Made by a program: the position numbers and the translations under genes. The notes under the pieces are model-generated. The model worked only from the letters and a program-made list of their open reading frames with translations. It searched no databases and was not told where the DNA came from. A stretch of DNA of 44,610 nt, the filler included, from Jimgerdemannia flammicorona (taxonomy: Eukaryota): NCBI GenBank assembly GCA_003990765.1. It is 2 parts of 2 records of this genome, joined end to end, with 100 filler letters (N's around TTAATTAATTAA, not from the genome) between each part and the next. Parts side by side here need not be neighbours in the genome. Positions count along the whole stretch, not along the records: positions 22,362 to 44,610 come from RBNJ01001313.1; 1 more part is not named here. One strand, given 5' to 3'. This document shows, piece by piece, positions 11,621 through 36,502 of this stretch. The stretch's first letter is position 1. Each line of letters begins with the position of its first letter.

Positions 11621-12119
11621 GGAGCAAGTTGGTGACGTGATACGTTTGGTCAGGATGTGGTCGGCAGAACATTATCTCGACATTTCGCCTCCGGCTTCCG
11701 TTTCTCTAGTAAATACACTTCATCTCCGGCTCCCGTTTCCCTAGTAAATAATCCCAACTCTGCACATTCTGACTTTCCCTGAGACGCATGCAATCAATCC
11801 AATATCGGTTCTTGGTCTAATAAATTGAAATGGATGCACCACATGAAACATGTCCAACGAGATTCATCCTCTCTCGTGCTCATTTTATTTTTATTTTTTT
11901 TGTGAATGACATTAGAGTTTCGTATAGGTATTGTATCGCTCGTTTGTATCGTTGTAAAATTCGGTGATGGGAGATAAAGCAATTCAAGTAATTACAGGAT
12001 ATGCAGTATATTGATCTCTCATGATAATTTAAAACAACATGCTCAGAGAGGTGCTTTTCCACACATACGCACCTTTCAGACAAAAAATACATATTCTCAT
12101 AAGTAGTAATTACATCTAT

Positions 12120-13979: not shown

Positions 13980-14290
13980 CTTTGTTTGATCAATATCAAC
14001 ATTGTGTATGCCAAATTCTCTATTCTAACTATCACCACAGTCGTCATCAGCGTCTGGGATCTCTCACCCATGTATCCACCTTCCCATTTCTCCCCTCTTC
14101 CTATCCAACCAACCCTGGTCACCACCCCGGCCACCCCACACACCGTCTGGCGACATCTCCTATCTCTCTGAGCTCGCCGTCTCGGACATTCTCGTCACAT
14201 GCACGCTAGACTCACTCCTAACCGGAACCCTCGTCTACAAGCTGAACGGCGCCGAGATTCACGATGTAGCGTGCTTCATTACGCATGAAA
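13980..14290 (+). pseudogene. Third duplicated F-box/WD40 3' fragment
   Basis: Homologous to 11200-11620 (TVVISVWDL, ATPHTVWR, CTGAACGGCGCCG), with further deletions. Confidence 0.8.
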
Positions 14291-14453
14291 TAGGTGTTAG
14301 GAGCAAGTTGGTAACGTGATACGTTTGGCCAGGATGTGGCCGGCAGAACAATATCTCGACATTTCGCCTCCGGCTCTCGTTTCCCTAGTAAATAATCCCA
14401 GCTCTACACATTCGGACTCTCCCTGAGACGCGTGCCTAGACAGCCTCCTCGAA

Positions 14454-14540
14454 GACACGGACACGGACACGGACACGGACACGGACACGGACACGGACAC
14501 GGACACGGACACGGATACGGACACGGACACGGACACGGAC
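14454..14540. repeat. (GACACG)n hexanucleotide microsatellite, ~14 copies
   Basis: Direct reading; one variant unit (GATACG). Confidence 0.97.
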
Positions 14541-17399
14541 CCTTGCCTCAATCCTGCCGCTAGGCTCGCCACCAAACAGAACTGTCCCACCACAGTCTTC
14601 CGTCCGAGTCGTGCTTCGTCCGACTCGCGTGTCGTGCTTCGTCCGACTCGCGTGTCGTGCTCCAATAGTCACAACCAGACAACCGTTCCAGCCCTGCATC
14701 AAGACGCGTCCTCCTACATGCCTGCCCGCATCCCGCAACACTTTTCCTTTCCCAGCCTGCAGCCTGGCTTGACCTGGTACAGACATTCGACCTCAGGCGC
14801 GCCGGCGACCTCGTGTCGTCGCAAGTTCCCCTTCGGTGATGACGTGCTGGAACGGGGGAAGGAATTGGACAGGAGGGGAGACGGAGAAAGGGTTGCGCCG
14901 GCGACATGGGTGAGCGAGCTTGCAAGGGAGAGAGGAAAGGAGCGGGGTGGAGGTGGAGGGAGGAAGGCCAGTGAGGAAGGACGAGGAATGAAGTTAAAGT
15001 GGTATGTATTGTGTGGCATACATTGTTTTGCTGTGTGTTGGGTGATATGGCGAATACGACCTCATTTTTATTATACCCCTATGCCAGTACTGTCATCGGC
15101 CTAATGGAGGCGCTCAACATCCCTGCTACCGACAACACTGTCACCATGTACTGGTAGGGCGAGGTGGGTTTCGCCGACTTGTGTGGCGGGTCGCGAGTTG
15201 AGGGTTTGTAGACGTGTTGTGGTATGTGTGTTAGGGTAGACCGTGCGATTTTCGCTTCGTGCGGGACTCGCGATATCATTATTTCCCTCCCCTTCTCGAT
15301 GATTGTATCTGCTTTCTTGAAACTTCTGTTTATATATCTCTCTTCTCTGCCGTGCTGCAGTTTGTCACGCTATCAACCATGTCCCGTGGACCAACAACTG
15401 GGACGGTTTCATCACGAAGTTCAACAACCTCTCAGCTGCTTCGCGTCACGCAACTAAAGTTGGATTATTTACAGTGGTCGATAGGTAAATGGTATTGTAT
15501 ACCTGGAAACTTGTTTCAAGTGTTGACGATGAAAGCTCAGTTATAGGATTCTGTTTGGATTTTCTATTCACAGTGCACTTTTGGTGATATGTTAATGCCT
15601 CATTATACTATGTTTATTCATCCGACATCAGTTATCAATCACACATCCACCATCAATGTCATACCGCGGCCCCATCTGTAGGCTTTATCGAGTGTGAAAT
15701 GGTCGGGCAAACTTGACAGTTGATTACTATCACAACCCAAATTAAGTTGTCGCCACGGTGGCGTAATGGTTGATTTATTGTAAGTGCATGAGGTTGAAGC
15801 GTGTTGTGGGTAGTGATAATCTTGATAACTGATAACTCGTTGCCTATAGTTGATACTTCATGGCCATATTTTCTGTAAATAAGCAATAAGTTATCATCAC
15901 CTTTACCTGTGCAATTGCGCACACAATTCATATTTCGATATTGTACTGCGCGAGTGAAACTGGAAATGTAAAGTGAATAATAAGCATACCGAACCCAACT
16001 GTTGGGATTTTTACTGAAATTACTGGAGTAGAACGAGGGGATGTTTTTATTGATACTCAAGTTATGCGTTGCAGATTGATGACATAAGAATGATGACGTA
16101 TCCGTTGAAGAACAAGCAAAGGTTTCATTGGTCATGAAAAGTCTAACATCTGGCTACATATAATTTGCATTATCAATTTTTGCATTCCACACTCACAATT
16201 TGCATGAGAATGCTCATAGTATCCTCTGTTCCTCTCAGCCCAGCGAAGGGATTTGATATGTCGTCCGCGGCTTATTTGATACTATGACATCGTTGACGAC
16301 CTTGTTTCGATGGAAACCATTTATTATCCCCATCTATAGTGAGCGCCTTCACTGAGACCAGAACTGCCATACCAGCATCGCGATCGGATTCACAGCTGCT
16401 CACGCTTGTATACCCCACATGTTACTTGATCACCCTGCATGCCTGCAGAATACCCGTCATTTTATGTTTGTAACCCTCAACTCCCACACACATCATAGCT
16501 GGCGGCTTCACCAGGCATTTGGGGGGAGGGGGTGGGGGGGGTGCCTTTCCATGCGTTAAAGAATGTAATCTACAAAGGAGAGAATTCACAACGCTTCGCA
16601 TTGATTACGCCTCAGCATTGGCGGATAAGCAAAGGATGTGGTGATAAACGAGCACTACTGTTTTCGACGATCGGAAGTGGTGGTGACTGCAAAAAAATTA
16701 ATGGTATATACTAATGCGCAGTGAAAATAAAGGTTGCTGTGTTGTGTCATTTTGGTCTTTATTATTGTTGTGGAATTCGTAACGCCTTTTACTTACTGAA
16801 GATGACGTAGAATTGATGTAAAGGGATACGGCGTAAAGTCACGTGCCATACATGTCGAGTTGTCATTTCAACAATTATTTTAAAAAAAAAAAAATCGACA
16901 TACAACCATTTCAAAAAGCATGCGTGACTACCAAGAAAACAAATGGTCGACGTAAGATAACACGAAAACATGCATCCGCGCTTGGGTCGATGGTGCGTGC
17001 TCGCAGTGGGTGGCTTTTGTTTACAATAATGATAAAATACAAATAAGCTGCACTACGTTCTGGTTATGTGTAGCAAAAGAAAAATATTATGACTCTAGAC
17101 CCGAAATTTCAGGCTAGATTGTTGTCGCCATTTCAAACAATAGGCTATAGCGGGTAACAGTATCGATTTTGCAGTCTGGGCTCTCGGATGTGAGTCTCAC
17201 TAGAATCTTGAGATCAGTGCACCACCAGAAATTTGCTTGAGGGGACAGGAAGGAACGCCATCTCTACTTCCTCAGCGGACTCCACAACCTCAATATCAGC
17301 GACTCGCACCCAACGCGGCTTTGCTATTTCAACAATTCGCTAGCGCTAAACAATGAACGACGTATGCCCTAAATCCAATTAGATAGATACCTGTTTTCT

Positions 17400-17620
17400 G
17401 GCTTGCGCGGCTTATGCGGCTGCGCTTGTGCGGCTTGCGCGACTTATACGGCTGCCTTGCGCGACATATGGCGACTTGCGCGGCTTATGGCAGCGCTTGT
17501 GCGACTTGCGTGGCTTATGGCAGCGCTTGTGCGACTTGCGTGGCTTATGGCAGCGCTTGTGCGACTTGCGTGGCTTATGGCAGCGCTTGTGCGACTTGCG
17601 TGGCTTATGGCAGCGCTTGC
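17400..17620. repeat. 30-bp minisatellite GCGACTTGCGTGGCTTATGGCAGCGCTTGT, ~5 near-perfect plus ~2 degenerate copies
   Basis: Head-to-tail repeats without spacers. Confidence 0.95.
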
Positions 17621-18389
17621 CCTCATTATGGGGAAATGTAAAGACCATAATGGTTTCGACTTTGTCCGCTGATAAATTAGGAATCGTAGTGTGGCTAGTA
17701 TGACCATCTCTTTTAAATTCACAGCCGCATGAAAAGCTTCCCAATTCTCAATCGGATACGCTTGCGCAATGCGTGTTTGTGCCCGACCATCAAAGATGAG
17801 ATCCGAACGGTTATCCTCTCTAATGCGCATGAGGACTGCTATATTATATTACTGTTACTGGCATTATCTATTTGTCAGAGTTTTTTTCATGAGCAGATCA
17901 TTTTCGATTTGCAACGGTTATCCTTGCAGTTGACAATCTGCAATAAGTATAGATATGTACGGCCTATGAAGTATACAGGCACATTTGAGACCTCTCAAAA
18001 TGCTTACCCAACGCAAGAGAACCAAGTTCTCCATCGTCATGGTTTATTTGGTGTAACAGAGCTTCAGCTATGGAGAAATGAACGCAGATCACCATTTCTA
18101 TTTAACTTTCCAAAACGTTTCCTTCTTTCAGATTTATTTTCAATTTACACCCACTTCTTCTACAGTAAAGTAGGAAGACGTTTGCACCATTGTTTTATTG
18201 CACTTATACTGGAAAGAATGAATGATAACCCTTGAGCAAGAATGAAGACCATTCTGTTTTTGGGTTTACGCGGATCATCCACAAGCGGGTCGCGTCAACC
18301 CGCCAATAGACCCTGGACGCCGCAATAGACCTGCCATCAAGTGTGAAACAACTGGTTTGAGCGATTTACTACCTAGAACCAACTTGTCC

Positions 18390-18422
<33 letters not shown>

Positions 18423-20333
18423 CCTTTCTTTCCTTTCATTGATGGTAGAATTGCTCAATGTTGGTGGAGCAATATCATTATATTCTGTGATTTCCATACA
18501 CTGAATAATTATGGGTTTGTGACTTTGCTCGGATGTGACTATTGTTTCAGGTTCAGGTGGTGGGCAAAGACCAAAAGACTCCCAACCGTCGCTTTCTTTT
18601 CTTCATCGCTTGCTTCGTGCAAACTGCCTACTATATGGCCCGCTTGGGCGACGCTTGCGTGGGTATATACCTGCGTATAGGTACACCAAGTGTATGACAC
18701 CTGGTGTTAGACACTCCATGTGTATAACACCTTGTGTTAGATCGGTGTAGGTTTGTGCCCTAGCCGGGACGATAAAAGGGGCCCCTCTCCATTCTGGAGT
18801 GTGTATCTTAGCCTTTGTAGTTTTAACGGGTGGGGAAAGAAGTTGCCTATTTACGTTAAGTATTGCTCTCAGTTTCTTCTGCTGCCGTGTCTTTTTTTAT
18901 TTTATTTTTTTCGAATTTGCCCACTCACTATTACCACGACCGGAACGAAATGCCAACGCGAAAGCGTAGTGCCGCCCGGTTGGTCTTGGTTGCTCTTAGG
19001 CCAACTGATGACCCCCTTGAGCAAGGGCGAAACCGGTCTATTCATTTGGTGGCGTTTGTTTACATGATTATGTATTTTAATTTATAAACAATAAAAACAC
19101 ACGTCTTATAGACGGTTGGCATCGCGATTGTGAGTGAAAAGGTGAGCGAAAGGTATGCGTTTGATATGGTCAGAATTACATAGTCCGTTCTCGTCGAGAT
19201 TCACGGTCGAGATTTTGGTTTTGTCGCGTGCCTGAGACTCGCGCTGGCTTGTGGGTCGTGTGAGGGTTGGTGGTTTGAACGTGGGGCTGTGGGTCGTGTG
19301 AGGGTTGGTGGGGTTGTGGCTCGCGTGGGGATGTCGAACAGAGTACAGATACTCGTCCCCCTTCCTTCTCCCCGGATCCAGACACACGCAGATCGAGGTC
19401 CGACTCGCAACGCCATCTCACGCCATATGGCGAAGACGCTTTCGCACCTCGACCAAAAACGCCGATGAGCATGCTCAAAGCCTCTGAGGCTCTTCTAGAC
19501 GATGTCACAAAAATGTACCTCAAGTCAGTGTTCTGTATGAGAACCCTGCGCAGGTCGAGAGCTTGAGCGCCACAAATGGACATGATCTCTGATTTAAGTG
19601 TGATCATCTCTGTTTTTTGTGGGATTGGTGGGTGGTTGTGTCTGGGCAGCTATCTGTGTTGAACATATACAGTCTTTTAGATTATCCTTCATTCCAATTA
19701 TTCTACAGGACATCTTGACGGCCCAATTCACGGACGACCTGCTCCACTCTCTCAGCGGCGCCATCCTCCGCACCGAGCACCTCACCGCTATTATGGACGT
19801 TCGAGGACGGCGCCGCCTCCCGCATTGAGCACCTCATCGCCATTATGGACGTTTGGAGAAGGCGACGTCGAGATTGAGCAGGCCGGCAGGCTCGCCGATA
19901 AGGGAGGGTTGGGGTACGAATCAATCCGATATCGGCCCTTGGTCTAATAAATTTAAAAAGATTTTGAAATGGATGCACCACATAGAACATATCAACGAGA
20001 TTCATCCTCTCTTGTGCACTCGTTTTATTTTACTTTTTTGTGAATGACATTTAGAGTTTCGTATATACAGCTCTTGCTATGGGTATTTGTATCGCTCGTT
20101 TGTGTCATCGTAAAACTCGGTGATGGAAGATAAAGCAATTCAAGCAATTACAGGATATGCAGTATATTGATCTCTCGAAACGTTCATGGCCTTATGCATT
20201 GATGTCAATTTGACGATATTGAAACATCTGTGACCCATGTACGAATGGGATGATGATTTAAAACAACATGCTCAGAGTGGTGCTTTTCTACACATACGCA
20301 CCGTTCAGACAAAAAATACATATTCTCATCTAT

Positions 20334-21477
20334 TCACAATAACGAAATAATTTCCGTCACTACCTCCCTGAAAACTTCGATTTCCTTGTACCTTTCCATG
20401 ATCTCCTTAAAATTCTCGCACTTGCGCACGGCATTCACATTCTTTAAAACGTACTCTATGGCCCTCTTCCTCAAGGGAGGGTAGATATACGCCCAACCAA
20501 ATAGGATCTCGAGCGCTGTTGCCGGGACGAGCTCCTGCATAATTCTATTCTCGGCCTTTGCGGTGAGCTCGCTGATCTGGTACTTGTCCGAGAGGCAGTA
20601 GAGATCGCGCAGAGCCGCACCGGTAAACCTGTCGGGGTCCAGGAAGCCGCTGTAGAGAAACCAGAGCATCACCCTGAAGCACGGCACCGTTGTGTCTGTG
20701 ACCTCGATGGTCGCATTTTCGCCCTTCACCTGGTTCTCCATCATACCGCTGCTGAACATGGCCTTGAAATAGTCGCACCTGCTGGTGATGATGTTCTTGT
20801 CAACCTTAATTATTTGGCCACTGACGTTGAAATTCACGTCTAGGTTGCTCATCATCAGCTCGAAGATGGTTTCGAGGGACTCATTGGCAGGCATTTAATA
20901 CGAAAACTTGACTTCAATAGTAATACCCTCATCTCTGGGAGGTTGAATAAGTTACAAAAGTTTAATGAGCCTGCATGTGGAAAGATGGCAACGGATGTTA
21001 ACACCGAGCACACAGAGATGTTATTCGTACGACGAATCAAGATAATGACATATCATTCAGTGCTCACCCCCATCTTCTTTAGTGGAGGTAAACTCTTTTT
21101 TTTCGAGGTGCACCTCTGCAAAGAGTTTCTTTGATGATGCCGACCTACAAAGGAGTGTGAACTGGACATTTGGACGGACGCGAAAAACCCCCATCGGGTT
21201 TCGCTGTCCCGCCTTAACAAAAGCCGCTACGAACCCCTCCTTGCTAGTCATTACTTCGTTCTGTAAACCGATTTGTCCATAAGAACTCCGAAGCATATTA
21301 AAAGAAAATAGGAGACTCCCAGAGTGGACGGTGACTTGCTGGATAGAACGCCAGGCTCCAGCCGTCGTCGCCCGGAGTATACGCAATATGACTGGTGTAT
21401 GATCTCTCCTTCAAGTAGCAAAGCTTCCCGAACACCCAGCTGAAGGAGAACCCCATTTTCACCGTTTTGTCAAGCAT
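20334..21477 (-). pseudogene. MATH-BTB copy 4, frameshifted; exons 21477-21340, 21260-21068, 20970-20334
   Basis: Exon 3 is 637 nt versus 647 nt in copy 3, because of a 10-bp deletion (TGTCTCTCGC) at ~20951 that shifts the frame before the BTB domain. The conserved MATH Trp is also lost (KESWG > KEDGG). Confidence 0.85.
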
Positions 21478-21609
21478 ATTTAGCGAATTTGGGATAGAGG
21501 CAGTAGGTGGCTTATGCAACACGTCATTTTGGCCAAACTATCTCGGCATTGTCTGACTCGTTCACCTTTCTCACGGATTGGCCATGTTAGGTATCACCCA
21601 AATTCTTTC

Positions 21610-21660
21610 CCTCGTCTATGAGCTGAACGGCGCTGGGATTCACGATATAACGTGTGAGGC
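21610..21660 (+). pseudogene. Short fourth remnant of the F-box/WD40 exon 2
   Basis: CCTCGTCTATGAGCTGAACGGCGCTGGGATT (LVYELNGAGI), followed by the same spacer as in the other units. Confidence 0.7.
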
Positions 21661-22124
21661 TAGTGTATCACTATTTGTATTATTGGTGGAGATTGCGGGG
21701 GGATTTAAATATGGAGGAAGACGACGATTAAAAGGGTTCTGTGAGCTTTTCCAGTTCTTAAAAGAGATATATGGGAAGCAGAGTTTATTGTTAGAAGCAA
21801 ACTTGGTGACCTTGAGCGAGACAGGATTGCATCTCAATGCGGCAGTTATTTTTATATTAATAGTAACATTATCTCGACATTTCACCTCCAAGCTAGCAAC
21901 GGCTCTATTTTCCCTAGTAAATAATCCCCACATTCTGACTCTCCCCGAAATGTGTGCAATCCATCCGATACCGGCCCTCGCTCTAATAAATTTAGAAACG
22001 AGCACACCGCATAGAACATGCCCAGCGAGATTCTTCCTCTCTCGTGCGCTTGTTTCATTTTATTTATTTATTTGTGAATTACATTCAGACAAAAATACAT
22101 ATTCTTATAAGTAGATCATCTTAT

Positions 22125-22261
22125 TCACAATATCTCAATCAATTTCGTCACTAACTCTCTGAAAACCTCAACTTCCTCGCACCTTTCCATGACCTCCTTA
22201 AAATTCTCGCAATTGCGTATGGCATTCACATTCTTTAAAACGTACTCTATGACACTCTCCT
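22125..22261 (-). CDS. 3' end of MATH-BTB copy 5, truncated by the assembly gap
   Basis: Encodes SVIEYVLKNVNAIRNCENFKEVMERCEEVEVFRELVTKLIEIL*, homologous to the C-termini of copies 1-4. Confidence 0.8.
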
Positions 22262-22361
22262 NNNNNNNNNNNNNNNNNNNNNNNNNNNNNNNNNNNNNNN
22301 NNNNNTTAATTAATTAANNNNNNNNNNNNNNNNNNNNNNNNNNNNNNNNNNNNNNNNNNNN
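22262..22361. other. Artificial gap linker N44-TTAATTAATTAA-N44
   Basis: Exactly 100 bp and symmetric; the central 12-mer gives stop codons in all six frames. Confidence 0.95.
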
Positions 22362-24188
22362 GGAATTCACAGACCTCATAGCTATGTATGCGGCAGCCTT
22401 TTTGGAGCAGCCGATAGTAGATGTAGGTTGCTCACTCGGCCGCCACTTGTTTACTTGTGTTTATTTATTTAAACTTCCCCAGCACAACCCAATTCACCTT
22501 GTGCTTTTCTCAGGGTCTACAGCTCTACGGCGAGATCTGCCGACTTTATTTGCAATATCTGGTCAAGATGAAGAAAGGCTGGTGGACATTGCAGGGCATG
22601 CCTTTGGTGGCTGAGCTATTGAGTCAATGCATCACGTGGCGGAGGTCTCAAAAGGAACAGAAGCAAGCCTTCATGAGCAATTCTTGTGCAACTCATGCAA
22701 CTCATCGGCGTGCAACTTGTCGGCATGCAACTCGTCGGCATGCAGCTCACTCACTCATGCTCTTTTTCTGAAATACCCATCTCCGTGTTTTATTTAACTT
22801 TATTTTTACGTAGTCTCCCCCTAAAAAACACCCACACCTGTATGCAACCCATCCGCATGCAACCCACCCACCTGCATGCAACCCACCCACACGCAACCCA
22901 CCCGCAACCCACCCGCACACAACCCACCCACACACAACCCGTCTGCATACTTATCTTGGTCCCTCAGATCAGGGCTCAGTTCCAGTGGAAAGGAGAGTTC
23001 AAAGTTACCCAAGTTCAACCACATCCGGCATCTGATCAAATAGAGAAATTCAAGGGCAAGATGTTCAGCATGAGCAGTACCAGCATCATCATCAAGGCTT
23101 GGGGATCTACATTCGAATCAGAGCCAATCATACTCGACCAAGGGGTCCATTGGCCAGCAGGAGTAACCAACAATGAAGAGAACCATATCTTTATTAACGA
23201 ACGTGGAGAGGTGGTTGCGATGGTAGTAAGAAACCTCTACGGCGATGAGCTTCGCCGCCACATCAACGAGATTTGCGAGGATTGCATCAAATACCAGGTG
23301 GCAGGGAAGAGGGGGCAAAAAAAGCAAGGAGGGGGGGTTTGGACGGGAATTGGATATACTGCAACACTGGCGAAGGGTGGGTTCCGAAATCCCCTGCACT
23401 CGTCTCTCTTTTTTTTTAACCCCTCCCCAGATAAATCACACTCTTTGCTGACATACTCTTTTTGATACAATTCCAGGGATGCACAAGATTCTGTACCCCT
23501 ACTAGAACTTTAGAAGTGCCGTCGAAGAGCAAACTGCATGCGAGCATGACACGGCCTGTGCGGCAATGGCGGCTATGATCTGGGGTTCTTTGAGCAGATT
23601 GGTAGAGCATACGGCAGGCCAGCTTGGTGGTGATCTCAGCGCGGCTGTACGTACGTTCTTGGCGCAATTTAGCATGCCATATGAGGTGAGGAGCTCCGCT
23701 TTTTTGGGGTGCTGCAGCCCGGGGGGTTTCTGCAGCCCGGGGGGTTTCTGCCTCCCGAACGCAAAAAGGACTGACCAGTTACTGTCCGTTTTGGCAGGTT
23801 TCCAAGCCGGGGCTCCCAGGGCTGGACCAAGAGCAGGCATCCACCAGTACAGCCTGGCAGTATGAGGTTCTGGGCCAAGGGTTCACCTAACCGTACGCTC
23901 GTGTCACATCAGGATATGTCAGGCACAACCTTTCTCTGCCCACACACAGACAACAACGTTACTCTGGTAATGTTTTACGTCCCGAAAAGGAAGGGCCCAA
24001 CCTGGGAGGATAGCAGCGAAGTCTGGTACGACCTCACCTATGGTTTTGGGGTCCCATTTGTGGCCAACACGGCCGTCCTATTCCAACCACATGACCACCA
24101 TAGCACCGTCGCCTTCGAGGAGAGCTCGGACACAATAGTCGTTACACTCACAATGGATGATAGGCTCATCAAGGCCTGGGACCGGTAG
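22362..24188 (+). pseudogene. Multi-exon gene with C-terminal 2OG-Fe(II) dioxygenase-fold (TET/JBP-like) domain; 5' end lost in gap; probable premature stop
   Basis: Probable exons: ~22362-22421, ~22512-22660, 22968-23376, 23477-23685, 23798-~23859, ~23913-24188. The last exon has LCPHTDNN (HxD) ... GFGVPFVANTAVLFQPHDHHSTV (distal His). In-frame TAG at 23503. The last splice junction is uncertain. Confidence 0.55.
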
Positions 24189-24494
24189 GTGGAGTAGTTT
24201 TTGTGAGGGTTAGGCAATCTTTCATGGGGGTTAGGCAGCCATTTTGTATGGGTTGGGCAGTCTTATGTGGGGGGGTTGGGCTGGGCACCTCTTATGTAGC
24301 ACTAGCTTAGCCATTATGCAGGGCCCTACTGGCCCCTTGGCCCTGCTCTGTAGTGCCACCGGTGCGGCACTGCGGCATAGGGCCGGGGTGCCTGTGGGAC
24401 CCGAACCGGTGACTTCAACTGCTGGAAATGCCCTCCGACCACCAGAAGCACCCTCTGCCCGCCAGAAGCACCCTCTGCCCTGGACTCCTTGGCG

Positions 24495-24810
24495 GCTTGG
24501 GGCTGCCCCTATGCCACTGGCAGAGGGCCGCAAATTTTGCGCGCTCCCTCTGCCTGCCCCGCCCGCCAACCGATCCTGCCCACTGACCCGGGTGCTGATA
24601 GCTTGGGGCTGCCCCTCACTGCTGGCAGAGGGCCGCAAATTTTGCATACTCCCTCCGCCTCCCCCCCTGACCTGGACAATTGCAGCTTGGGGCTGCCCCT
24701 TACTGCCGGTGGAGGGCCACAAATTTTGTGTGCTCCCTCCGCCGACCCACCCACCGACCCAGGCACTGGCAGCTTGGGGCTGCCAACCCCACCTCACTTT
24801 GGCCGCAAAC
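24495..24810. repeat. 3.5 diverged copies of an ~85-105-bp GC-rich repeat (GCTTGGGGCTGCCCC...GAGGGCCGCAAATTTTG)
   Basis: Unit starts at 24495, 24601, 24685 and 24772. Confidence 0.85.
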
Positions 24811-24906
24811 TCCAGGCCAAGTTCTTAGGTTTTTTTCCTTTTATTAATTTGAAAGGTATTAAATATTCCACAAGGCCAACCAACTTATCTGTGGACTCAC
24901 CGAATT

Positions 24907-27430
24907 TTAGCGGCCTGAGCCCCACCAAGACTTCAGACACATACACACCCAGATTGTCTCAGCATTCAGCATACACCTCTTTGGGGCAACAAGGTCTACC
25001 CTATCTGAGAACACCTGCTCGACGGGAGTGCTGGAGGCAGGAATCACCAGGTAGTCCCGAGCCATACCACACAGGCTAGGGAAGTCCGTTTGACGCAGCT
25101 GCATGCCCTGGTGGGTAGAGTAGAGTGGTGGTTAGATTGGTGGGTTAAATTGGCCCAACGCCTACCAGACAACCCACCTTCCACCAGTTGAGCACCTCCG
25201 TGCCCTCCAGCAGGACCACGCGGTCGCTGGCGAGGTAAATGGTAAGTTCGTCTATTGATGACAGCTCTTCCACTGACGGCTCTCTCTTCCTCTTTCTGCC
25301 GAAGTAAATATGGGACAGGAGGGATCTCTTGGCATATTCGTCCGGACTTCGGCCAGAACCTTGCAGTGGTGCATAGTTTTTCCGGTACACTTCAATTACG
25401 GCCTGCTTGGTTCTCTCAATGAAGTGCTACTCCCAGCCCTGATCTTTATGGTATTGTAGCTTTAAGCGTGGGTCCAGCACTGTTCGAAGAAAAGGAGAGT
25501 GAGTTTTTGCGGGGTTTCCTCTGTTTTGGAAGGGGCAACGGCCACATGCTGACATACCTGTACTGATTGAGTATACGGTGGTATCTGTTTGGGTGTAGTA
25601 TTTTCTAAGCTTGCTTAGAGCAACCACCATGGCGTCTCTCTGATTCGGGCTTAACCGTAAATCACCACAACCCTCCAGCCTATCCTCGAGCTTGTCCTCT
25701 AGCCAGTCAATCAGAAGGTTGTATACCGGTATCACAGAGCTTATTGTCGGGGTCGTTTGTTTGACTATATCCTTCGTACAATCATCGAAACACTGGTAGT
25801 TATATGTGGTGAGAATTGCACTGTGCGGAGGCAGACAAAACGAGTGTAGAGCCAGGGCAACTACCACTTACTTCCAAAACTCTGACAATATTCCTAAGTA
25901 TATCCCACTCACTTTCACCTAGAGCCTCAGCCCGTATTTCCTTGTTGGCAGCCATCGTTGAATCTGTTGGCTTTTTTTTTTTTTAAAAAAATAAATCTTC
26001 CATCATCCGAAACAGTTGCTTCAGCCGACCGAAGAAAAAAAGGATGCATACCACAGCAAACTCCAGCATGTGCTGGATCATTGCAAATGTTGAGTTCCAA
26101 CGTGTACAGACGTCCAATATAAGCTCTTTCGGGGCTAAACTGATTGCCCTACACTGCGCAGTGAATTTGTCTCATCATTGTGGGGACGATCGGACCGATA
26201 CAATCAGTTTGCACAGCTTGGAAATTATACTCAGGGTACCTCCTCTCTTGGATGTTTTGTCTATGTATATAAGATAGTCCTGAACAGCGAGGTTCAGTAC
26301 ATGGGCCTGGCATCGCACATGGCAGCTTTCTGCACTGAAGGCCACGTTTTTCTGTTTGAGGCTGGCTGCTAAACCTTGGAAAAATGTTGAGTTATTTGTG
26401 GCATTGTCCGTCGTAATGGCCAAAATCTGTACTTGAAATATTTGGTTGACAAATTTATGTGAAAATAAGTAACCAATAAAATCTGGTTTGGTTTAGGACC
26501 TCCCTCAAAATGCCAACCTGATGGCAAGCCCCTCTTTTTTACCTTGGTGGTGATCCCAAGCTCCTGGATACAACTAATAAAAGCATCTGCGATATTGTCT
26601 CTAGAATGAGGGCCAGCAAGTTTGACAAAGTCAAGGGTGAGAGATTTAAGCTGCCAATCGAGGTCAATCCAATGACTGGTAATGCCCAGAAATGAAATTG
26701 CATTGGGGGATATCCATGTGTCGATCGTAAAAAAAATTTTGCCTGCCGAATTCTACTTATTGAATGTGAGGTTAAATTGGTGAGCTCTTTTGTATAATTC
26801 AGCTTGCAAAGGTCACGGTGCTGCCCTTATTTTACCTGAAGTGTCTGGTGGAGATTGTTGTGCTCCTTCCTATAGGCCTCCAGGATATCTTTGCGAATAG
26901 TATCAGCACTTGGCAAATATAAATCATGCTTGAGGAGGCCAAAGATGCTATGCAATTGATCACTCTTGATGGTTGTGAATGGCTGGTCTGTGCACACAAT
27001 CCAGCGAATGAGCTGATTTCGAAATTCTGCCAAAGAGTATGGCTAAAATTTTTGATTAAATGGCGTTGTTGGTACAGAAATGGTCAGGCAATCGGATAAA
27101 CGTACCCACCACAGCTTGGATGTTGATTTTATTTGTCTCTGTGTTCTTTTTTATTTTGTCAGAGTGCTTGTCTTTTATGTGTCGATTCATGTTCGAAGTC
27201 GTACCCCCAAGCATTTTGAACTTCTGGCTGGTACAGTTTATGGGGGTGGATGAAACAATATCATGTGTGTGTCAAAACAAAGTGTCAATAGGTGCGTCTT
27301 AATTTTTTACCTGCAATAATTACAAACAACATCATCTCCTATCTTAGTACAATGTTGTCAGATTTCGGAGCGAGGATTGCGTGGAAGGTGTGGAACTATC
27401 AGGGATGTTTGACTTGAAGCATCGTTGGTA
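24907..27430 (-). pseudogene. hAT (Ac-like) transposase, multi-intron, with BED finger, DDE core and C-terminal dimerisation domain; inactivated
   Basis: VVCNYC...TTSNMNRHIKDKH (BED), TIDTWISPNAISFLGITSHWID, AITTDNATNN, HVRCQAHVLNLAVQD, VCTRWNSTF, VLDPRLKL, LNWWK, FPSLCGMARDYLVIPASSTPVEQVFS. SPQ**DKF carries two TGA codons at 26172-26177. Start coordinate is approximate. Confidence 0.9.
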
Positions 27431-27555
27431 CTGTGAACTGTTGAAGACTGATCTGTCGACATGTGTGTTTGCATGTTTGTATGTGCATGTGTATGTGTGT
27501 GTGTGTATGCATATATGTGTGTTATGTTGTGGATGCGTCTGGCATATAAGTCATG

Positions 27556-28005
27556 TGGAGGATTTGGATTGGAGGATTCGGTTGAAGGATTTGGATGAGG
27601 ATTCAGATTGAAGAATTTGAATTGGAGGATTCAAATTGGAGAATTCGAATAGAGGATTCGAATTGGAGGATTCGGATTGAGTAATTCGGATTGAGTGATT
27701 CGGATTGAGTAATTTGGATTGAGTGATTCAGATTGAGTGGTTTGGATTGGAGTGGTTCAGATGGGTGATTCGGATGGGTGATTTGGATGGGGTGATTTGG
27801 ATGGGGTGATTCAGATTGAGTGATTTGGATTGAGTGATTTGGATTGGGGTGGTTTGGATGGGTGATTCGGATGGGTGATTTGGATGGGGCGATTTGGATG
27901 GGGCGATTCGGATTAAATCCGAGTTGATCCGGATGGCTTCGGATTTGAGATTTGAATCAAACTGTCATGTGACGAATCGAATCCGGATTTGATTCGAATT
28001 GACTC
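27556..28005. repeat. hAT subterminal short-repeat array (GATT[C/T]GGATT/GGATG motifs)
   Basis: Dozens of 14-15-bp periodic units such as GAGTGATTCGGATT and GGGTGATTTGGATG, with inverted copies (ATCCG/AATC) near the terminus. Confidence 0.85.
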
Positions 28006-28489
28006 GTTCGGAGCACTAGCCAGGGCAGTAATCGATCTTAATGCCCAGAAGATACAAATCACATACCAGGGACAGAGGATATGAATTCCCATCAATATCA
28101 ACAAAGGAGTCTTGTCTGATATGGAAGAAGAAGAGAGTGAGCAGGAGGAAGCTTATATGGTAACTATTCCAAAGAGGAAAGTAGGATAGATGAGTGAAGA
28201 AGAATGATGCAAGAAGATCACAGAAGGCTATGCACTACAAGGAGTCTGTCCTCACAGGATCAAGATATACTGTATGGAGTATGTCAATGATTGCTATCAA
28301 TATATCATCAGAATCAGAAAGATTCACTAGGAAAGAAGACAGAAGGCTCTTGAAAAACAGGTCAGAGAAGAAAAGGAGGAGGAAGATGACAAATCACCAG
28401 CCCTCCTGGAGGACAGTGATGATGAATAAATCAACATCAAGATTTGAAGAACCCACCCTGATACAGTTCTGCCAGAATACAAGTCAGAA

Positions 28490-28850
28490 AATACAGCTAG
28501 AATGGACATTACCATAGTAGAAAAAATTATACTAGAACCCCAGACAACTATCCTACTTGCAACTGGACTGGAAATGACTATTCTAAAAGACCATGTTGGG
28601 ATCCTCAAGACAAGAAGCAGCCTGGCCAGAAGTGAAATTACGATTGAAGGAGAAGTCATTGATTCTGACTATACTGGAGAAATTCTACTCATTGCTAGAA
28701 ATCACAATCCTACAATCCCATTCCCAGTCAAGAAGAAGGACTGATTGGCACAGATGCTGATCTTTCCGATCCTACAACTAAGGATCATAGAAGTCAAGGA
28801 TCTGGAGGAAATGAAAAGAGGAAAAAAAGAATTTGGATCCACAGAAAGAG
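28490..28850 (+). pseudogene. Trimeric dUTPase domain within Gypsy A pol
   Basis: dUTPase motifs II-V recognisable; one TGA at 28742-28744 in frame with RT. Confidence 0.88.
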
Positions 28851-31490
28851 GAGTATTCATCAGTATCAAGATCACCAAACTGAAGTATAAGAAGGAGGAA
28901 AGCACAAACAAGTACAGCTATACTATCAGAAACGAATTCCCACTCAAGGAGGAACTCAAGAAAATACTCCATGAATTTGAGAATGTCCTTGCCATGGACT
29001 TCAAGGATATCAAAGAAAAGACTCCACACTACTATCATGAGGTAGATACTGGAGACACTGAACCAATTTACCAGAAGGTAAGATCTGTCCCACCAGCCTA
29101 CTGAGAATGGCTCAGAGAAGAAATCAAGCAGATGGAAGAAGCTGGTATTATCAAAGAAGCCAGCAGTCCCTGGTCTTCACCAGTTGTACTAGCCACAAAA
29201 AAAGGAAGCAAACCTGGAGAATTCGCCCCAAGACTCTGTGTCAACTACAGAAAGCTCAATACAGTTACCAAGAAGGATTGCCAACCACTGCCCCTCATCA
29301 GTGACATCCTTATAACACTAGGAGATGAAGTACAGTACTACAGCACCTTGGACTTATACTCAGGATTCCACCAAATCAGACTCACAGAGATGACAAGTGA
29401 AAAGTCAGCCTTCATCACCCCAGATGGAACCTACATCTACCTACAAATGCCATTCAGGATGTGCAATACACCAGCAAGCTTTCAGCAAATGATGAACAAA
29501 ATCTTCTGCTATGACATGGAAAGATGGATGATGGTTTATGTCAATGATGTAATCATCTACAATAAGACACCTGAGGAACATCTGCAGTACATACAGCAGA
29601 TAATGGAGAGACTAAGACAATATGGCCTTTACATCAAACCCAAGAAGTGCAAGTTTGCAGAAATCGAGATCTCCTACCTTGGCCATGTTATCAATTAAGA
29701 TGGAACACATATGGACTCTCTCAAAATACAAGCAGTAACAGCATACCCAAGGCCCACCACTGTTACAGAAGCTCAAGCCTTCATGGGACTTGCCTCCTAC
29801 TATCGCAGATTCACTAGAGGATTCTCCAACATTGCAGGTCCAATCTATGAACTCAATAAGAAGGATACCAAGTTCCAGTAGACTGGCAGACAACAAAAAG
29901 CATTTGATGAACTCAAGATCAGACTAACTCAGACACCCATCCTCAGATGACCCAATTGAACTCAAGAATTCATTCTACAGATAGATGCAAGTACACAGAG
30001 ACTAGGAGCAGTTCTAGCTCAAAAGGAAGACAAAAAAGAGTATGTCATTGCATATCTAAGCCGAGGAACCCAAGGAGCTGAAAAAGAATATGAATCCTAC
30101 AAGTTGGAATGCCTCACAGTCATCTGGGCTGTGGAAAAGTTCCACTACTATCTGGCTGGAAGACACTTCACCATCCAGACAGACCACTCAGCTCTCATCT
30201 GGCTACTGACAACCAGATAACCCAAAGGAATCTACACTAGATGGATAATGAAGCTACAAGCCTATGATGTAACCATTGTATACTACTCTGGAAGAACAAA
30301 TTCCAATATAGATGCTCTCTCATGGATACTCTGAAATATTGCCAACCAACAAATCAATCATGAATAAGAAGCTCTACTATGGAATCATCACATATCTGGA
30401 ACAGCAAAAGATGCCCCAACATCTAGAAGAATGGATACAAATGATTATCAACAGAACATGGAAACAATTCAAAACTGATAGACAAATACTGAAGAAAGGA
30501 AAACTACTAGTCATACCAGAACACAGGAAAGAGCAAGCAATGAAATCAGTACATGAACTTGGCCAGGAATGGAGGAAGATATCAGACAATTTGTCAAAAC
30601 CTGTGACAAATACCAGAAACAGAAGTAAGACCAATGAAACCAAGCCCTGGGATCAGCATGCATAGAACTAGTACTATTTGCCCACATAGCAATAGATATA
30701 ATTGGCCCTCTGCCCTTGACCCTGACTGGTAACCAATATATTGTTATCATCATAGACCTTTTTACAAAATGGATAGAAGCAGGACCCCTCAAGGAAGCCA
30801 ATGCACAGTCAATCGCTGATTTCTTCCACAAAGAAATCATCTGCTGGTTCAAGACCCCAATACAAGTAACTACAGATAGAGGAACAGAATTTGTAAACCA
30901 GTTCCTTGAGGTTCTCTACAAGAAGTATAAGATCCAGCACATTCAGACCACAGCCTATCACCCCCAAGAAAACAGATAAGCAGAAAGGACTAACAAGACT
31001 CTCAAGAATGTTATCACCAAGATCTGTAATAACTATGAAAACTGGGATCACTATCTGCCAATAGCATTATCTGCTCTCCAGGATATCAGATCACAAAGTA
31101 CCCACTTTACCCCTTGGAAGATGCTGTTCGGAGAAGAAAGTTCTTGAGAAACCCTATCATCCAATGGAGATGCTATATGGAGACATGTGGATGGAAAAAT
31201 ACAGAGACTATACCAAATCAGGAAGAAGGCTGAGGATTACATAACAAAGGCACAGACACTACAACAGAAGAATGCAGAAAAAACCCACAAGCCCCTGGAG
31301 ATTATCAAGATAGAAGACAAAGTTCTGATATATTGGAACATAGTAGAAGCCTCATGGTCATGAAAACTGGAGCCCAAGTGGGAAGGACCTTACCTCATGC
31401 AAGATATAAAAGGAACCACCTTTTGGCTACAAAAACTCTCAGGTACAATCATCCCCACTACTATCCACCAAAACCAACTCAAGAAGTATC

Positions 31491-31993: not shown

Positions 31994-32457
31994 TGTGATA
32001 GCTGATCTGAATTAGTAACATGAAACAGAAAATTAGACATTTGATCGCAGTATCTGAATCCAATTCCCAATATAGTATAGCCATATAAATAGCAGTTATA
32101 TTTCGCAAAGTGCAGAAACTTTAATGTTTGCAAAGATTTAGGAGATATTAGAATCTTTGCAATCAGTGAAATCTTAGCAGATGTTAAAAGATTCAATACT
32201 TGCGAAATGAGCCATTACTTAGCCACCTTATAGCTAGCAAACTTATATAAATAACCCAGTATCTTAGAGTGAATAAACCTCAGATTGAAATAGTTCAAAA
32301 GCAAAGAGATAGCAAAGGAACTAGTAAGCCTGTAGGTAGATACACTTTGAACTCATCCATCCTTGCATCCCAAGGACTCTGAGGAGTCAGAGAAGATTAA
32401 GTATTCAAGATACAGAAATCTGATGTACTTTCAAGAGTAAGTGTCCACTATGTTACA
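31994..32457 (+). repeat. 3' LTR of Gypsy A (~464 bp)
   Basis: Follows purine tract AAGAGGAAGA (31984-31993). Starts TGTGAT, ends GTTACA. Internal TATATAAATA and AATAAA. Partner LTR is not in the contig. Confidence 0.7.
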
Positions 32458-34518
32458 GTATTAAGAAAAAAGACAAAAATGTTCTAATAAAGTCTTAGTA
32501 CTAAGAGAGAATTTTTAAATATTTAAAAGATATTGAAATATTGTAAAATATTTAAAAAAAGTTAAGAAAAAACTATAAAAAAATATAAAAATATATTATA
32601 ATTAAGATATTATTAAAAAATTATTATATCTCTCTATCTTTAAGAATAAATATTCTTATTGAATTTTAAAATTATATGAGAATAATTATATTTAAGCAAA
32701 GTTTCTCAAATAAAATTAAATACTACTATATATAAAAAGTTATCTAACTTTATAAAATAAAAACTAAAGGCTTAATAGTTAAAGATTTGAACTATATAAG
32801 AGAAACTTCTTATTATCTTAAATAAGCTTATTAGTAGTAACTATATTAGTATATTAAGCTAGTAAGTAGAGATAGAGATATATATTTTTACCTTAAAGTC
32901 TTGAATGAGATCTTATATATTCTTGAGATTAATCAATAGTTTCTAGATAATATCAATTTAGAATAGTCTATCTATTTGATTAAATATTTAGATTAATAGT
33001 AGTAAATAATCTTATTAAATCTTATACTTAATATGGTCTTCAATAATCATAAAGATAAATAGTTTGAATATTTAAACAAAATAAAATAGTAACTGATTTC
33101 AGATCTTAAGATAAGATATATAAAAAACTAGATAAATTTATATAGTTTTAGATAGCTTGAGATAATAGAAGAATATAGAGACTTATTCTATAATCTCAAA
33201 GAGTTTAGTAAACTTAGATTGAAATTTATTTAATAAGCAGTTAACTTGAAATTATATTTTGAGATTCTCAATATATAAAAGAACTTAATTACTAATAGTA
33301 TAGATAATATTATAGTATTTTTTATTAATATATATACTTGACTTGATATTGTTAGACTTTTTGAAGATTTACAGTAGTAATTTTGAATAGTTTATCTATC
33401 TTATTAATGAAGTTTTTAGTAATAGAGACTTAGAGTCTCTTTCTCTACTATTATACTAATTATAAGATTTTGATAAGTAATCTTCTGAGTTCTTTTTTCA
33501 TAACTTTTATTCTCTTTACCTTGAGTTGATTTGCTATACCTATTATAGAATAGTAAGAGAGAGATAATGATAATAAGTTGCTATATTATTAGTATCAGAT
33601 TAGTGTTTTTTTTTTTTTTACTTTTTTACAGTTTCTGGTACCTCTGACCACATCTGATATATACTTATTTAGTATAGTACTTTCTTTCTTTTATTATTAC
33701 CAATAAAATATCATCTTAGTATATTATAGACTATATAGAAAGTCAGCTAATCTTAAGCATCAAGTATTAGTATAAGTTATCTATAGATCTCTAGTACCTA
33801 TAGTAAAGCTCTCTGAGCTTTAGTAAGCTTTCTGGTAAGTATAGTTTTAGTACAGATAACTGCTTTTTGAGTAGAGTTAGAATGAGAGAAGAGATAGTTA
33901 TCACAGATAAGAGAAAGAGTAATTATAGTAAATCAGTAGAATGTTAGGCTAATAATAGTTATCAGAACTAATATAAATACTGTATTAGTAGAGTCTTCTG
34001 ATTAATATAGAGTAATTAGATAGTAGGTATTACTCTTAACAGTTCTTAGTAATATGTGAAGTTAGACTCTAGTTATTGAGAGTTATTAAAGAGTCCAACA
34101 TTACTCAGATTAGATATCTTAACTATACTTAACTAGAACTAGGTATTGATATAGTAATATGATCAAGATCTGTAAGTTTGAGTAATAGAGTATTAAAGAT
34201 CTTCTCTTATCTTACATATAAGTTCTCTACTTATCTCATTAGAGAGAACCAAGTTCCATCTACTGTTTTGTATTTTTGAAAGAGTTTTTTCTTTATCTAT
34301 TACTCTATTTGAGATAGTGGACTATTCTATTTAACTCAAGTATAGTCTTATATATATATTGAGATTTTGGATATATATCTTCAGTCATAGGCATATGATT
34401 ACTTTCTTTTTAATAGTAAGAAGAGCATAGTATATACATATAATGAGATATAGGCTACTATAATCTCTACTGTATCTGATATAGTTAAGCTACTAGACAA
34501 TAGCTAGTCTAGATCTAA
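32458..34518 (+). mobile_element. Very heavily C>T/G>A-mutated LINE remnant, same family as 173-1366
   Basis: ~33434-34518 aligns with ~178-1252, mostly by transitions. The upstream part is extremely AT/TpA-rich and is assigned to the element by continuity only. Confidence 0.7.
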
Positions 34519-36502
34519 TATAAGTGCACAACTTCCAAGTTACTAAAATTACATATAATCTCTGAATAAATCCAGAAATTATATATATGATTATAAAGCT
34601 GAGTCAAACCAAAGTCACAGCATATAAAGCTAAGTCAACTTGAAGTTATAGAATACAAAATTTATATAAATGGAGTCTTACCAATCAGGACCAAATATAT
34701 ATATACCAAGTACTGAGATATATCAAAATAAAGAACCACAACAAATTAAACAAATAATCCCAACTCTTAAATATATATACAAATATGACCACTGAGATCT
34801 ATAACTACATCTGTACTGACATTTGGAATACCATTGTCAACTAAGCTACACTCTCTCTGCTTCTTATGAATATCTATAACCTAGCACCTCTTTACTTTGT
34901 GGAAGCCTGATAGAATACCCTGAACATGCTCAGCAAAGTCTACCAAATTAGATAAATCTCAAGCTACTATCAGATTGGTCATCTCCTGGAAGATATGATT
35001 GAATACTACTATAATACTAATATTACTCAGATGTCTCAGCACTAGAAACTCATTACCCACAAATATCGAGAACTCTTCTATGAGTATAGCTTCTTTATTC
35101 TCCATCTCCAAGTTATTACTGCTAAAATGGTTACTATTCTATCTTATGGCCAAATTGATGATATAATATAAGAACTTAACCACAAGTATATCAAGTATAT
35201 TCAAACTACAGACAGAACCTTCCTGCACTCAGATGACCACATTCTACAAATGCCCCAAGTTGGATATGCTATGAAAGATATCTATAATATAATTCAATTT
35301 AATGATAACAAAGCAGAAGACAATGATCTCTCTAATACTGATATGACCTTAAGCCAAGGATCTCTACCAACTCTGATCACTCTGCCAACCTTGCTGATGA
35401 ACTTATAATAGTTCATAACTATCTATGAGACCTATTGAGATAATGACTACTGGTATAAGTACCAATCCATATTCACCACCAATTACTTCAATTATAATAA
35501 AGAGACCAGAGAATATAACCTATATCTCTAGATAATCCTTGAGATTGAACCAACAACTCCACCATCTGAGTATGAGTGATATGAAGTATAACTGCCAGTA
35601 TACTACAACTCTACAACTTATAGTATTATAATCTATAGAAGGTATACAGACAGTGAATCTGATGATAGTGAAGATGATGTATTCCTCCTTTACCTATCAA
35701 CTTCTTATCCAGTATACAAGACAGATAATGCTATTCTGTAGGATAGCAATGAAGTCCCAATATATTATTATCTTAGTGAATAGAGAGAAGTAATCCAAGA
35801 ACTACTTTTCTTAAATAACTACTTCATTAGAGATAATATCATTGATGGTAATATCACTGAAAACTACCCAGATAGTATCTAAATCTATAGATAGTCTAGC
35901 AGTCATTAGTATAGTTAGATTAGTCTTATATGACATAACTGTGAACTAACTCAGCAAGGTACTAAGTACTACATCTATATTTAGCATAGTCCAGATAGCC
36001 TTCTATTAGTATAAATATCTCCTCCTCCAGATCTCAGAATCTCAGACTTGAGCATACAGAACAATTTGAACACAACTCCTAAATACTTCTCACAATATTT
36101 CTTCATAACTACTCCTAGTATAATAATATTACGAATAGTGAATAAACCTATTTAATAACTCACCAATTACTCTTAAGTAAATCTGCTTCTTATTAGGTTC
36201 TACTTCTAATCCTATTATAAAATTTTCTAATTGAGTATTGTCTACAGTGATATACCAATTCAATTAAGCTGGTCTTAGTTTCTTAAACTTTCTGAAATAT
36301 AGAAAATTCTGAACATCCAGAACTAGTTCAAAAAAGGACTTTGGTTGAGACATCAATCTGATCTTGAAATCAATAAGTATAGAGGATATACTTTATATAA
36401 AATTGATCATGACCTAAAGAAAACAGTCTTTGAATATCCAGAACTTCCAGAAACCCTTTCCAAAACTATATAATGGTTACCCTAATAAGTAATCCTCTTA
36501 TA
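34519..36502 (+). repeat. Putative ~1.98-kb 5' LTR of Gypsy B, followed by a PBS-like TGGTAGCAG at 36506
   Basis: Start TATAAGTGCACAACT matches TGTAAGTATACAACT (42990-43004), which follows the purine tract 42976-42988. End CTTATA is a mutated CTTACA, the inverted repeat of TGTAAG. Confidence 0.6.
34785..35890 (+). pseudogene. Decayed ~365-codon ORF of unknown function inside the putative LTR of Gypsy B
   Basis: One frame from ATG 34785 (MTTEIYNYICTDIW...LSKVYQIR*ISSYYQIGHLL...YTDSESDDSEDD), interrupted by TAA/TAG/TGA consistent with C>T/G>A changes. Confidence 0.55.

Follow-up and report, generated by a model that had tools for sequence, protein, structure and literature searches.

Does the hAT transposon that borders a contig gap in the genome of Jimgerdemannia flammicorona carry a TET/JBP-like 2-oxoglutarate (2OG)-Fe(II) dioxygenase gene of its own, or does a broken gene of other origin simply lie beside it? 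The question is posed by a stretch of 44,610 nucleotides (assembly GCA_003990765.1, hereafter the window; positions 22,362 to 44,610 come from RBNJ01001313.1), for which an initial annotation, made from the sequence alone, had proposed a dioxygenase gene as hAT cargo. Our analysis favours this proposal with a probability of roughly 0.6 for all of its parts taken together. Positions 22363-28018 would represent the right-hand part (5.7 kb) of a single dead hAT copy that had inserted into a Gypsy element, within its protease region, and this hAT would carry, next to its transposase, a four-exon gene for a divergent fungal transposon-borne TET/JBP-like 2OG-Fe(II) dioxygenase, with the left end of the element, i.e. 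its terminal inverted repeat (TIR) and target-site duplication (TSD), lying beyond the contig start at the gap. The element-bearing contig begins at 22362/22363, immediately right of the gap, and shows in order the plus-strand gene, a GC-rich spacer, the minus-strand hAT transposase, a subterminal array, the terminus at 28018 and the remainder of the Gypsy element (Table 1).

A Pfam scan placed the hAT dimerisation domain (PF05699, Dimer_Tnp_hAT) at 24907-25131 with an E-value of 3.2e-10 (40.1 bits; cutoff, 21.4), which bears out the annotated transposase on the minus strand, tail-to-tail with the dioxygenase-like gene; a BED-like zinc finger at 27056-27271 stayed below the cutoff (zf-BED, E 0.029). 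The C-terminal dimerisation domain, the BED-like finger, a terminus beginning with TAGTG and short repeats in long subterminal arrays are features in common with Ac-like hAT elements of fungi and plants. For a comparison with other copies, contigs of four public sequencing runs (X1-X4) were aligned to the window, yielding short pieces (X1 comprises 2196 records; 32 of the 2514 aligned pieces are listed). The transposase is a pseudogene too: its TGA at 26172-26174 reads CGA in other copies, with A>G at 26174 found in X1 (34.8/79), X2 (13.5/13.5) and X4 (4.2/4.2). Near its right end, the element has a CpG-rich subterminal array, and the motif GATT[TC]G[AG] occurs 19 times within the bins 27500-27999. 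Contigs from three of the four runs (two records in X1, one in X2 and three in X4) follow the Gypsy sequence rightwards from 28018 and continue to the left with a different, mutually consistent sequence. They represent the empty site, from which the hAT boundary is known with a precision of 1 nt. Position 28018 is a genuine element end, as had been annotated.

The plus-strand gene comprises four exons between about 22568/22589 and 24188. Using tblastn, the full-length homologue P0004 was placed on three window exons and the shorter relative P0001 on two frames, and the comparison, together with direct inspection of the sequence, upheld a spliced gene that ends at 24188 and encodes an H-T-D motif at 23943-23951 (His 23943-23945, Asp 23949-23951) and a distal His at 24099-24101 as candidates for the metal site. 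While the 3' end of the originally proposed span 22968-24188 stands, its start does not, since a further exon, at about 22568/22589-22669, corresponds by eye to the N-terminal part of P0004; this first exon is the weakest of the calls, and a clean splice donor is absent after 22669 in the window copy. Exon 2, containing ..VAMVVRNLYGDE..GKRG..GIGYTATLAKG, ends in phase 1 at G/GT, at a position identical to that of the metagenome locus L001. The last exon further encodes an Arg at 23988-23990, 13 residues past the Asp, and another at 24162-24164, 21 residues past the distal His, which corrects the earlier statement that an Arg beyond the distal His is not evident.

In this copy the gene is dead, interrupted by three nonsense codons and by the loss of 2 bp. 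The TAG at 23503-23505 in exon 3, reported before as the premature stop, is present but not the sole defect: a TAA at 23888-23890 occupies the position of a Gln in P0001 and P0002, a TAG at 24186 replaces a Trp of P0001, which extends eight residues further, and one CA is missing from a (CA)n run near 23940, within the HxD motif itself. Other copies have retained this CA (73.8/105.5 depth in X1, 8.9/24.3 in X4 and 0/2 in X2, with X3 providing no cover). Thus, the HxD within the annotated CPHTDNN is real but had been read across a frameshift, the motif of the gene family being (L/S/A)PTH(T/V)D.

To place the gene among known proteins, exon 4 was used as query for an exhaustive HMMER search of 1.84 billion (1.84e9) representative proteins, which returned four matches, three of them credible: P0001 (136 aa, E 4.6e-38, 81% identity), P0002 (E 3.6e-20) and P0004 (374 aa, E 1.6e-4). 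A fourth relative, P0005, was retrieved with P0004 as query (E 8.8e-59), and all four relatives are cluster singletons from metagenome or Logan assemblies. A word-indexed protein search gave no match with exon 4 and only P0004 and P0001 with a profile of the four-sequence alignment A1; in scans with the same profile, none of 43 pattern matches in viral contigs and none of 26 in genome contigs was confirmed. Scanning of JGI metagenome contigs revealed two loci, L001 and L002, whose products are 48% and 47% identical to P0004 over residues 28-367. By our own reading of the sequences, three intron positions are common to L001 and the window gene; P0004 and P0005 are uninterrupted at these positions, from which we infer that they derive from transcripts after splicing or from copies that lack introns. 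The family is, as these matches indicate, real but very rare. L002 contains two in-frame stops that are absent from L001, and therefore there, too, the family exists in multiple copies and is in decay; upstream of its dioxygenase gene, L002 also shows a 70-nt unit directly repeated at 4-73 and 182-252 (about 180 nt apart).

The remaining match of the HMMER search, P0003 (413 aa, E 2.2e-6 over five stretches), is internally repetitive, has no HxD...H and was excluded from all alignments as likely spurious. It is built of repeats of about 50 residues (..DGVSAVVYRS..HIRELTL..WDLSAGTGAP..), and its five matches to the last exon probably reflect compositional or strand-pattern similarity.

Is the encoded protein a TET/JBP-like dioxygenase? 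The His-x-Asp...His metal triad of 2OG-Fe(II) enzymes is kept in the P0004 alignment (4/4), in L001 and in the window. In P0004 numbering, H283, D285, R298 and the pair H335-G336 are invariant in all four sequences of A1, and L001 and the window likewise keep H283, D285, R298 and H335, the window having Ser instead of G336. The hallmarks of the family are therefore HxD, HG[S/T], an Arg 13 residues past the Asp and, in most cases, a second Arg some 20 residues past the distal His, which is found 19-21 residues on in five of six members (P0004, P0005 with a shift of one, P0001, P0002 and the window). Either the invariant R298 or this more distal Arg may be the basic 2OG-binding residue. The spacing from HxD to the distal His amounts to about 50 residues, which we take to be similar to that of NgTET1. 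A search of the ESM Atlas by language-model features with P0004 as query gave a top score of 0.96 (209/256 features) to a cluster from Basidiomycota, in which 15% of the members carry PF20515 (2OG-FeII_Oxy_6), presumably a Tet-like family; further clusters from Basidiomycota and Mucoromycota without a family name scored 0.95-0.96, and at rank 11, with a score of 0.91, came a cluster of which 16% of the members carry Tet_JBP. These results count as leads; a score of 0.96 is attained by about one in 100 shuffled proteins according to the text of the tool.

Comparison with the transposon-borne TET/JBP proteins compiled by Kojima (2025, PMC12730594; here and below, as far as the available portions of that article and its Table S1 go), who distinguishes the three types PU, AG and PE, revealed five motif blocks of the family that are collinear with PE (Agaricus Zisupton) and PU (IS3EU, EnSpm) proteins. 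The family reads RGK..G.YVSAGY where Table S1 proteins read RKG..G..FGHSAG (block 1), PTHTDNNVTLV against PHTDNDVNDWTLV (block 2), KRE against SRE shortly past the metal-binding acid (block 3), IFRARDLHGT against IFRAQEYVHGT or LLHGTS (block 4) and GLSLTTDERL against GLSFVTSSRL (block 5). The PE type in particular resembles the family by eye in its N-terminal layout (..V.MV.RD...R.G..G...SAG..), its distal motif (LLHGTS, here LHGT) and its last strand (GLSFVTSSRL, here GLSLTTDERL), and shares with it an Arg soon after the metal-binding acid and a divergence too great for ordinary profile searches; a distal HG[S/T] is present in the PE type and in some PU entries (PMC12730594). The solved structures named there as nearest, CcTET, NgTET1, CMD1 and TET2, have the His-x-Asp...His triad in common with the family, without a detectable sequence match.

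Several observations speak against such an assignment. No Pfam 2OG family was matched at E<=10 by P0004, P0001, P0002, P0005 or three L001 exons, or at E<=0.1 by the three window exon pieces; P0004, P0001, P0002 and the L001 exons matched no Pfam family of any kind at E<=10, and the scan of P0005 returned just two chance-level matches to unrelated families (E 0.19 and 0.3). Neither Tet_JBP (PF12851) nor a solved TET/JBP chain was matched by hmmscan or by hmmsearch and phmmer against the PDB, where sequence searches produced only chance-level matches (allophycocyanin, E 1.6; eL43, E 0.35). AlphaFold2 models reached mean predicted local distance difference test scores of 34.8 (4-row alignment) and 37.6 (11-row alignment), too poor for a fold comparison. 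The motif comparison with the Table S1 proteins was made by eye and without a statistic, all members of the family have HxD where HxE is the hallmark of the PE type (PMC12730594), and L001 lacks the Arg past the distal His, which in P0005 is displaced.

Alternatively, the family, though real, might not be of TET/JBP type and represent another class of 2OG oxygenase or a non-enzymatic HxD...H protein: there is no Pfam, PDB or structural match, an invariant Arg past the distal His is lacking, PF20515 is found on just 15% of the members of the best ESM Atlas cluster, and exon 4 alone led to 2OG-FeII_Oxy_3 clusters (0.88, a lead only). We nevertheless consider this quite unlikely, given that both His residues, the Asp and the Arg 13 residues past it are invariant in all members, that an ESM Atlas score as high as that of P0004 is reached by so few shuffled proteins, and that five motifs are collinear with PU and PE proteins. 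Moreover, the failure of sequence methods is expected for this group because the PE type itself reaches no better than E 1.4 to CMD1 with HHpred, while at e < 1e-5 its AlphaFold-DB models recover CMD1, NgTET and CcTET (PMC12730594). Judged from its sequence, the gene thus probably belongs to the transposon-borne TET/JBP group. The assignment made in the initial annotation is retained on the strength of the HxD...H triad, the ESM Atlas leads and the motif collinearity, but has gained no backing from Pfam or the PDB.

The second part of the question, whether the gene is cargo of the hAT or its neighbour, has to be answered from absence and indirect evidence, because the left TIR and TSD are unseen. 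In agreement with the earlier reading, the window holds no second TIR: the terminal 14-mer matched only itself at up to three mismatches, and no partner of the terminus is found among the 25 listed inverted-repeat pairs (29 found). Within 20000-30000, at least two forward subterminal motifs per 250-nt bin occur only in the two bins at 27500-27999, and no bin contains at least two inverted ones; therefore, a left subterminal region is absent between the gap and the transposase. The TSD-like GCCAGGGC was likewise correctly reported to have no matching copy between transposase and gap, as it is found at 28019 and otherwise only by chance at 25851 inside the transposase open reading frame (ORF). 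Neither the 19 nt that flank the empty Gypsy site on its left nor the 5' half of the Gypsy element occurs in the window, and the latter result upholds the absence reported between transposase and gap. When the window was compared with itself, nothing in 22363-28018 recurred apart from the internal tandem arrays.

Base composition points in the same direction. The dioxygenase gene has an observed/expected (o/e) CpG ratio of 0.60 and the transposase one of 0.57, compared with 1.00 in the host BTB region, 0.08 in the Gypsy element and 0.04 in an AT-rich block further right, and the two genes therefore share one decay history, unlike both neighbours. The gene region is multi-copy like the transposase in 4/4 runs, with many diverged contigs, and contig records 9 (X2), 17 (X3) and 25 (X4) extend 173, 50 and 99 nt past 22363.

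Gene and terminus are paired in a second genome as well. L001 contains 10 copies of the subterminal motif, oriented as in the window and 1.7 kb downstream of the homologous gene, and a 28-nt stretch downstream is identical to window positions 27987-28014 at 24 of 28 sites; its score of 36 was reached in none of 300 shuffles (mean 18.9, maximum 29). The window protein and that of the L001 genome are both less than 50% identical to P0004, and the joint presence of gene and terminus type in both genomes indicates long-term co-inheritance instead of a one-off capture. Between its dioxygenase gene and the hAT-like terminus, L001 harbours at 2320-3369 a four-exon plus-strand gene of about 290 aa that gave no Pfam match and has no counterpart in the window (best tblastx E 0.2); this gene may be additional cargo, in a related element that is non-autonomous.

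Weighing against cargo status, neither the left TIR nor the TSD was ever seen, only the right end being in the contig, and L001 has no transposase, so that the linkage found there is between gene and terminus and not between gene and transposase. No contig bridging 24189-24903 in another copy is among the pieces listed, and the bins 24267-24742 have a depth of 0 to 1.13 in X2 and X3. Two neighbours could produce the same picture, with a gene of another repeat, or one amplified on its own, lying next to a hAT copy that has lost its left end through deletion or rearrangement. Such an arrangement would leave TIR and TSD unseen, and it fits a contig that starts only 205-226 nt upstream of the two candidate start codons and a spacer (24189-24903) that varies or has little coverage in X2 and X3; TET/JBP genes are also known to move between transposon superfamilies, which makes adjacency weak evidence (PMC12730594). 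It is unlikely, however, since it requires the deletion of the hAT left end and of the whole Gypsy 5' half together with an exact join to the other repeat, and since it has to contend with the matching CpG o/e of both genes and with L001, where homologues of both gene and terminus are linked in a distant genome. We therefore regard it as probable that the dioxygenase-like gene is cargo within the hAT. The original placement of the gene inside the element thus stands in so far as no left end separates the two genes, both decayed equally, the region is multi-copy and L001 repeats the gene-terminus pair, but not as a directly seen element with two ends.

For a hAT with such cargo, a function in escaping DNA methylation can be envisaged by analogy. 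The window copy cannot act, as both of its genes are broken; where the element is live, oxidation of 5-methylcytosine on or around it by the enzyme would oppose both methylation-based silencing and CpG-to-TpG decay. An anti-silencing role of this kind has been proposed for all TET/JBP-carrying transposons and has not been experimentally validated (PMC12730594). Transposons of the J. flammicorona genome are CpG-depleted and host genes are not. Of the 39 best-supported copy differences listed (957 further rows exist), 28 are C>T or G>A changes found only in the window copy, in the ancestral contexts CpG (13), CpC (8), CpA (7) and CpT (0), albeit in a small sample; we infer that cytosine methylation followed by deamination is the route of silencing and decay here. 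The subterminal region (27463-28018) departs from this depletion, with a CpG o/e of 1.42 against 0.38 (spacer) to 0.60 in the rest of the element, and a CpG is present in the consensus of the 14-bp unit, TGGAGGATTCGGAT. The element ends may accordingly be the critical substrate: the enzyme could keep the transposase-binding repeats unmethylated and thereby couple demethylation to mobility.

To our knowledge, classical hAT elements contain a transposase gene only. Elements that combine the two genes are nevertheless published, the earliest description, from rusts, dating from 2025. TET/JBP-carrying transposons have been mapped in rusts, mushrooms and Pezizales (Kojima 2025, PMC12730594), and the view adopted in the initial annotation, that fungal TET/JBP genes travel mainly on KDZ/Plavaka-type transposons, is outdated, as rusts alone contain seven carrier lineages, including 20 TET/JBP-carrying hAT families (PMC12730594). 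These 20 are hAT7 families from six Puccinia species with a 7-bp TSD and a gene of the PU type (PMC12730594). Is the window element simply one of them, and thus wholly known? The kind of element is identical, a hAT transposase and a TET/JBP-like gene united in one element with the latter upstream of the transposase; CpG-directed decay, seen in the host transposons of both, would suit an origin in Pucciniomycotina, and HTDN and VHGT are common to some PU proteins and the family (PMC12730594). In contrast, the two hAT7 consensus starts seen read CAACGGTGGGCC (CAACGG...), not TAGTGCTCCGAA (TAGTGC...) as in the window; and the two genes are co-oriented in hAT7-1_PCor, hAT7-2_PCor and hAT7-1_PHor and convergent here (PMC12730594). 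A 7-bp TSD defines hAT7 (PMC12730594); the left junction of the window element, with its TSD, is outside the contig. Furthermore, none of six k-mers of the terminus begins an element among the entries listed, and none of the family words GGFEF, VSAGY, CEEAF, YGFGV, THTD, THVD and PTHTDNN occurs among the Table S1 entries listed, with which the protein has no family-specific word of at least five residues in common (PMC12730594). Judged from the entries compared, membership in a published hAT7 family is thus highly improbable.

The hAT described here likely represents, on the sequence features available, an unlisted lineage with a divergent dioxygenase, of an element kind that has already been published. 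Literature searches found nothing that names PF20515 or 2OG-FeII_Oxy_6 and, among the papers listed, no TET JBP report for Mucoromycota, Glomeromycota or Rhizophagus, although the latter phrase search may miss the slash form 'TET/JBP'. Going further, one might tentatively propose a fourth transposon-borne TET/JBP type, which would combine the HxD of PU and AG with a PE-like layout and HG[S/T], travel on a hAT lineage unrelated to hAT7 in a soil fungus outside the three listed classes, and possibly target the ends of its own element; this is a speculative extension that we put forward as doubtful. The PE type itself differs from the family in having HxE instead of HxD, and no hAT carrier is listed for it (PMC12730594). 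TET/JBP-carrying transposons constitute the clearest case of a mobile element that encodes a counter-measure to silencing by DNA methylation, and a protein that is invisible to Pfam and has few relatives suggests that such cargo is under-counted by profile-based annotation. As a fossil, the window copy has no functional consequence.

Eight public sequencing runs from five studies contain sequence of the element, in small shares (0.06-0.20); they are labelled as soil metagenome or with a coded organism, and no RNA run is among these eight.

The window as a whole is eukaryotic, with a gene structure of fungal type, and its features are compiled in Table 1.

Table 1 Coordinates of the features in the window, in order of position.
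Feature	Position	Strand	Description
BTB ORF with SPRY	2389-3696		Pfam
F-box/WD40 gene	4163-5985		
BTB ORFs	6910-7638, 9844-10578, 12120-12845, 20334-20891		Pfam
Sixth BTB, C-terminal fragment	22125-22261		Cut by the gap; resembles 20334-20480 by eye
Gap	22262-22361		N runs flanking TTAATTAATTAA, a six-frame-stop linker; from sequence
Exon 1	22568/22589-22669	+	ATG at 22568 or 22589; reads MPLVAELLSQCITWRRSQKEQKQAFM; like the P0004 N-terminus by eye
Intron-like stretch	22670-22967	+	Tandem arrays CATGCAACYC / ACCCACCC at 22694-22749 and 22835-22941
Exon 2	22968-23376	+	Aligns to P0004 residues 92-167; tblastn joint E 4.1e-17
Exon 3	23477-23685	+	P0004 residues 167-227 (tblastn); TAG at 23503-23505
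Exon 4, putative catalytic core	23798-24188	+	P0001 match, E 4.6e-38, 81% identity
Spacer between the genes	24189-24903		GC-rich; 20-bp and 84-bp tandem arrays at 24431-24480 and 24600-24784
hAT transposase pseudogene	24904-~27462	-	Several frames (introns and/or frameshifts)
Right subterminal array	27556-27914	+	About 26 copies of the 14-bp unit TGGAGGATTCGGAT; CpG-rich
Right terminus	28005-28018	-	TAGTGCTCCGAACG read inwards; boundary ambiguous by 1 nt
Interrupted host Gypsy element	28019-30665	+	Pfam domains; 5' half not in the window
Gypsy dUTPase (PF00692)	28448-28741		E 3.4e-13; upstream of the reverse transcriptase
Gypsy reverse transcriptase (RVT_1)	29105-29695		E 6.4e-27
Gypsy RNase H (RT_RNaseH)	29960-30217		E 1.2e-29

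Within the spacer, the copy number of the arrays differs among copies of the element, as seen from the contig joints 24565>24672 and 24748>24565. At the junction with 28018, the Gypsy frame looks by eye like a C-terminal retropepsin motif, which we take to be a remnant of the protease.

Left of the gap, a tandem cluster of BTB/POZ genes occupies 2389-22261, with Pfam BTB matches in five of 20 scanned ORFs. The TTAATTAATTAA within the gap reads as a contig-join linker, so that the two sides may not adjoin in the genome; since the element-bearing contig starts only at 22362/22363, the BTB gene fragment left of the gap need not be adjacent to the element. On the far right, an AT-rich block of 11 kb (32001-43000) has a GC content of 0.23-0.36, a CpG o/e of 0.04, no excess of TpA and hardly any long ORFs, and looks like very old CpG-decayed repeats and not like the product of CpA-type repeat-induced point mutation.

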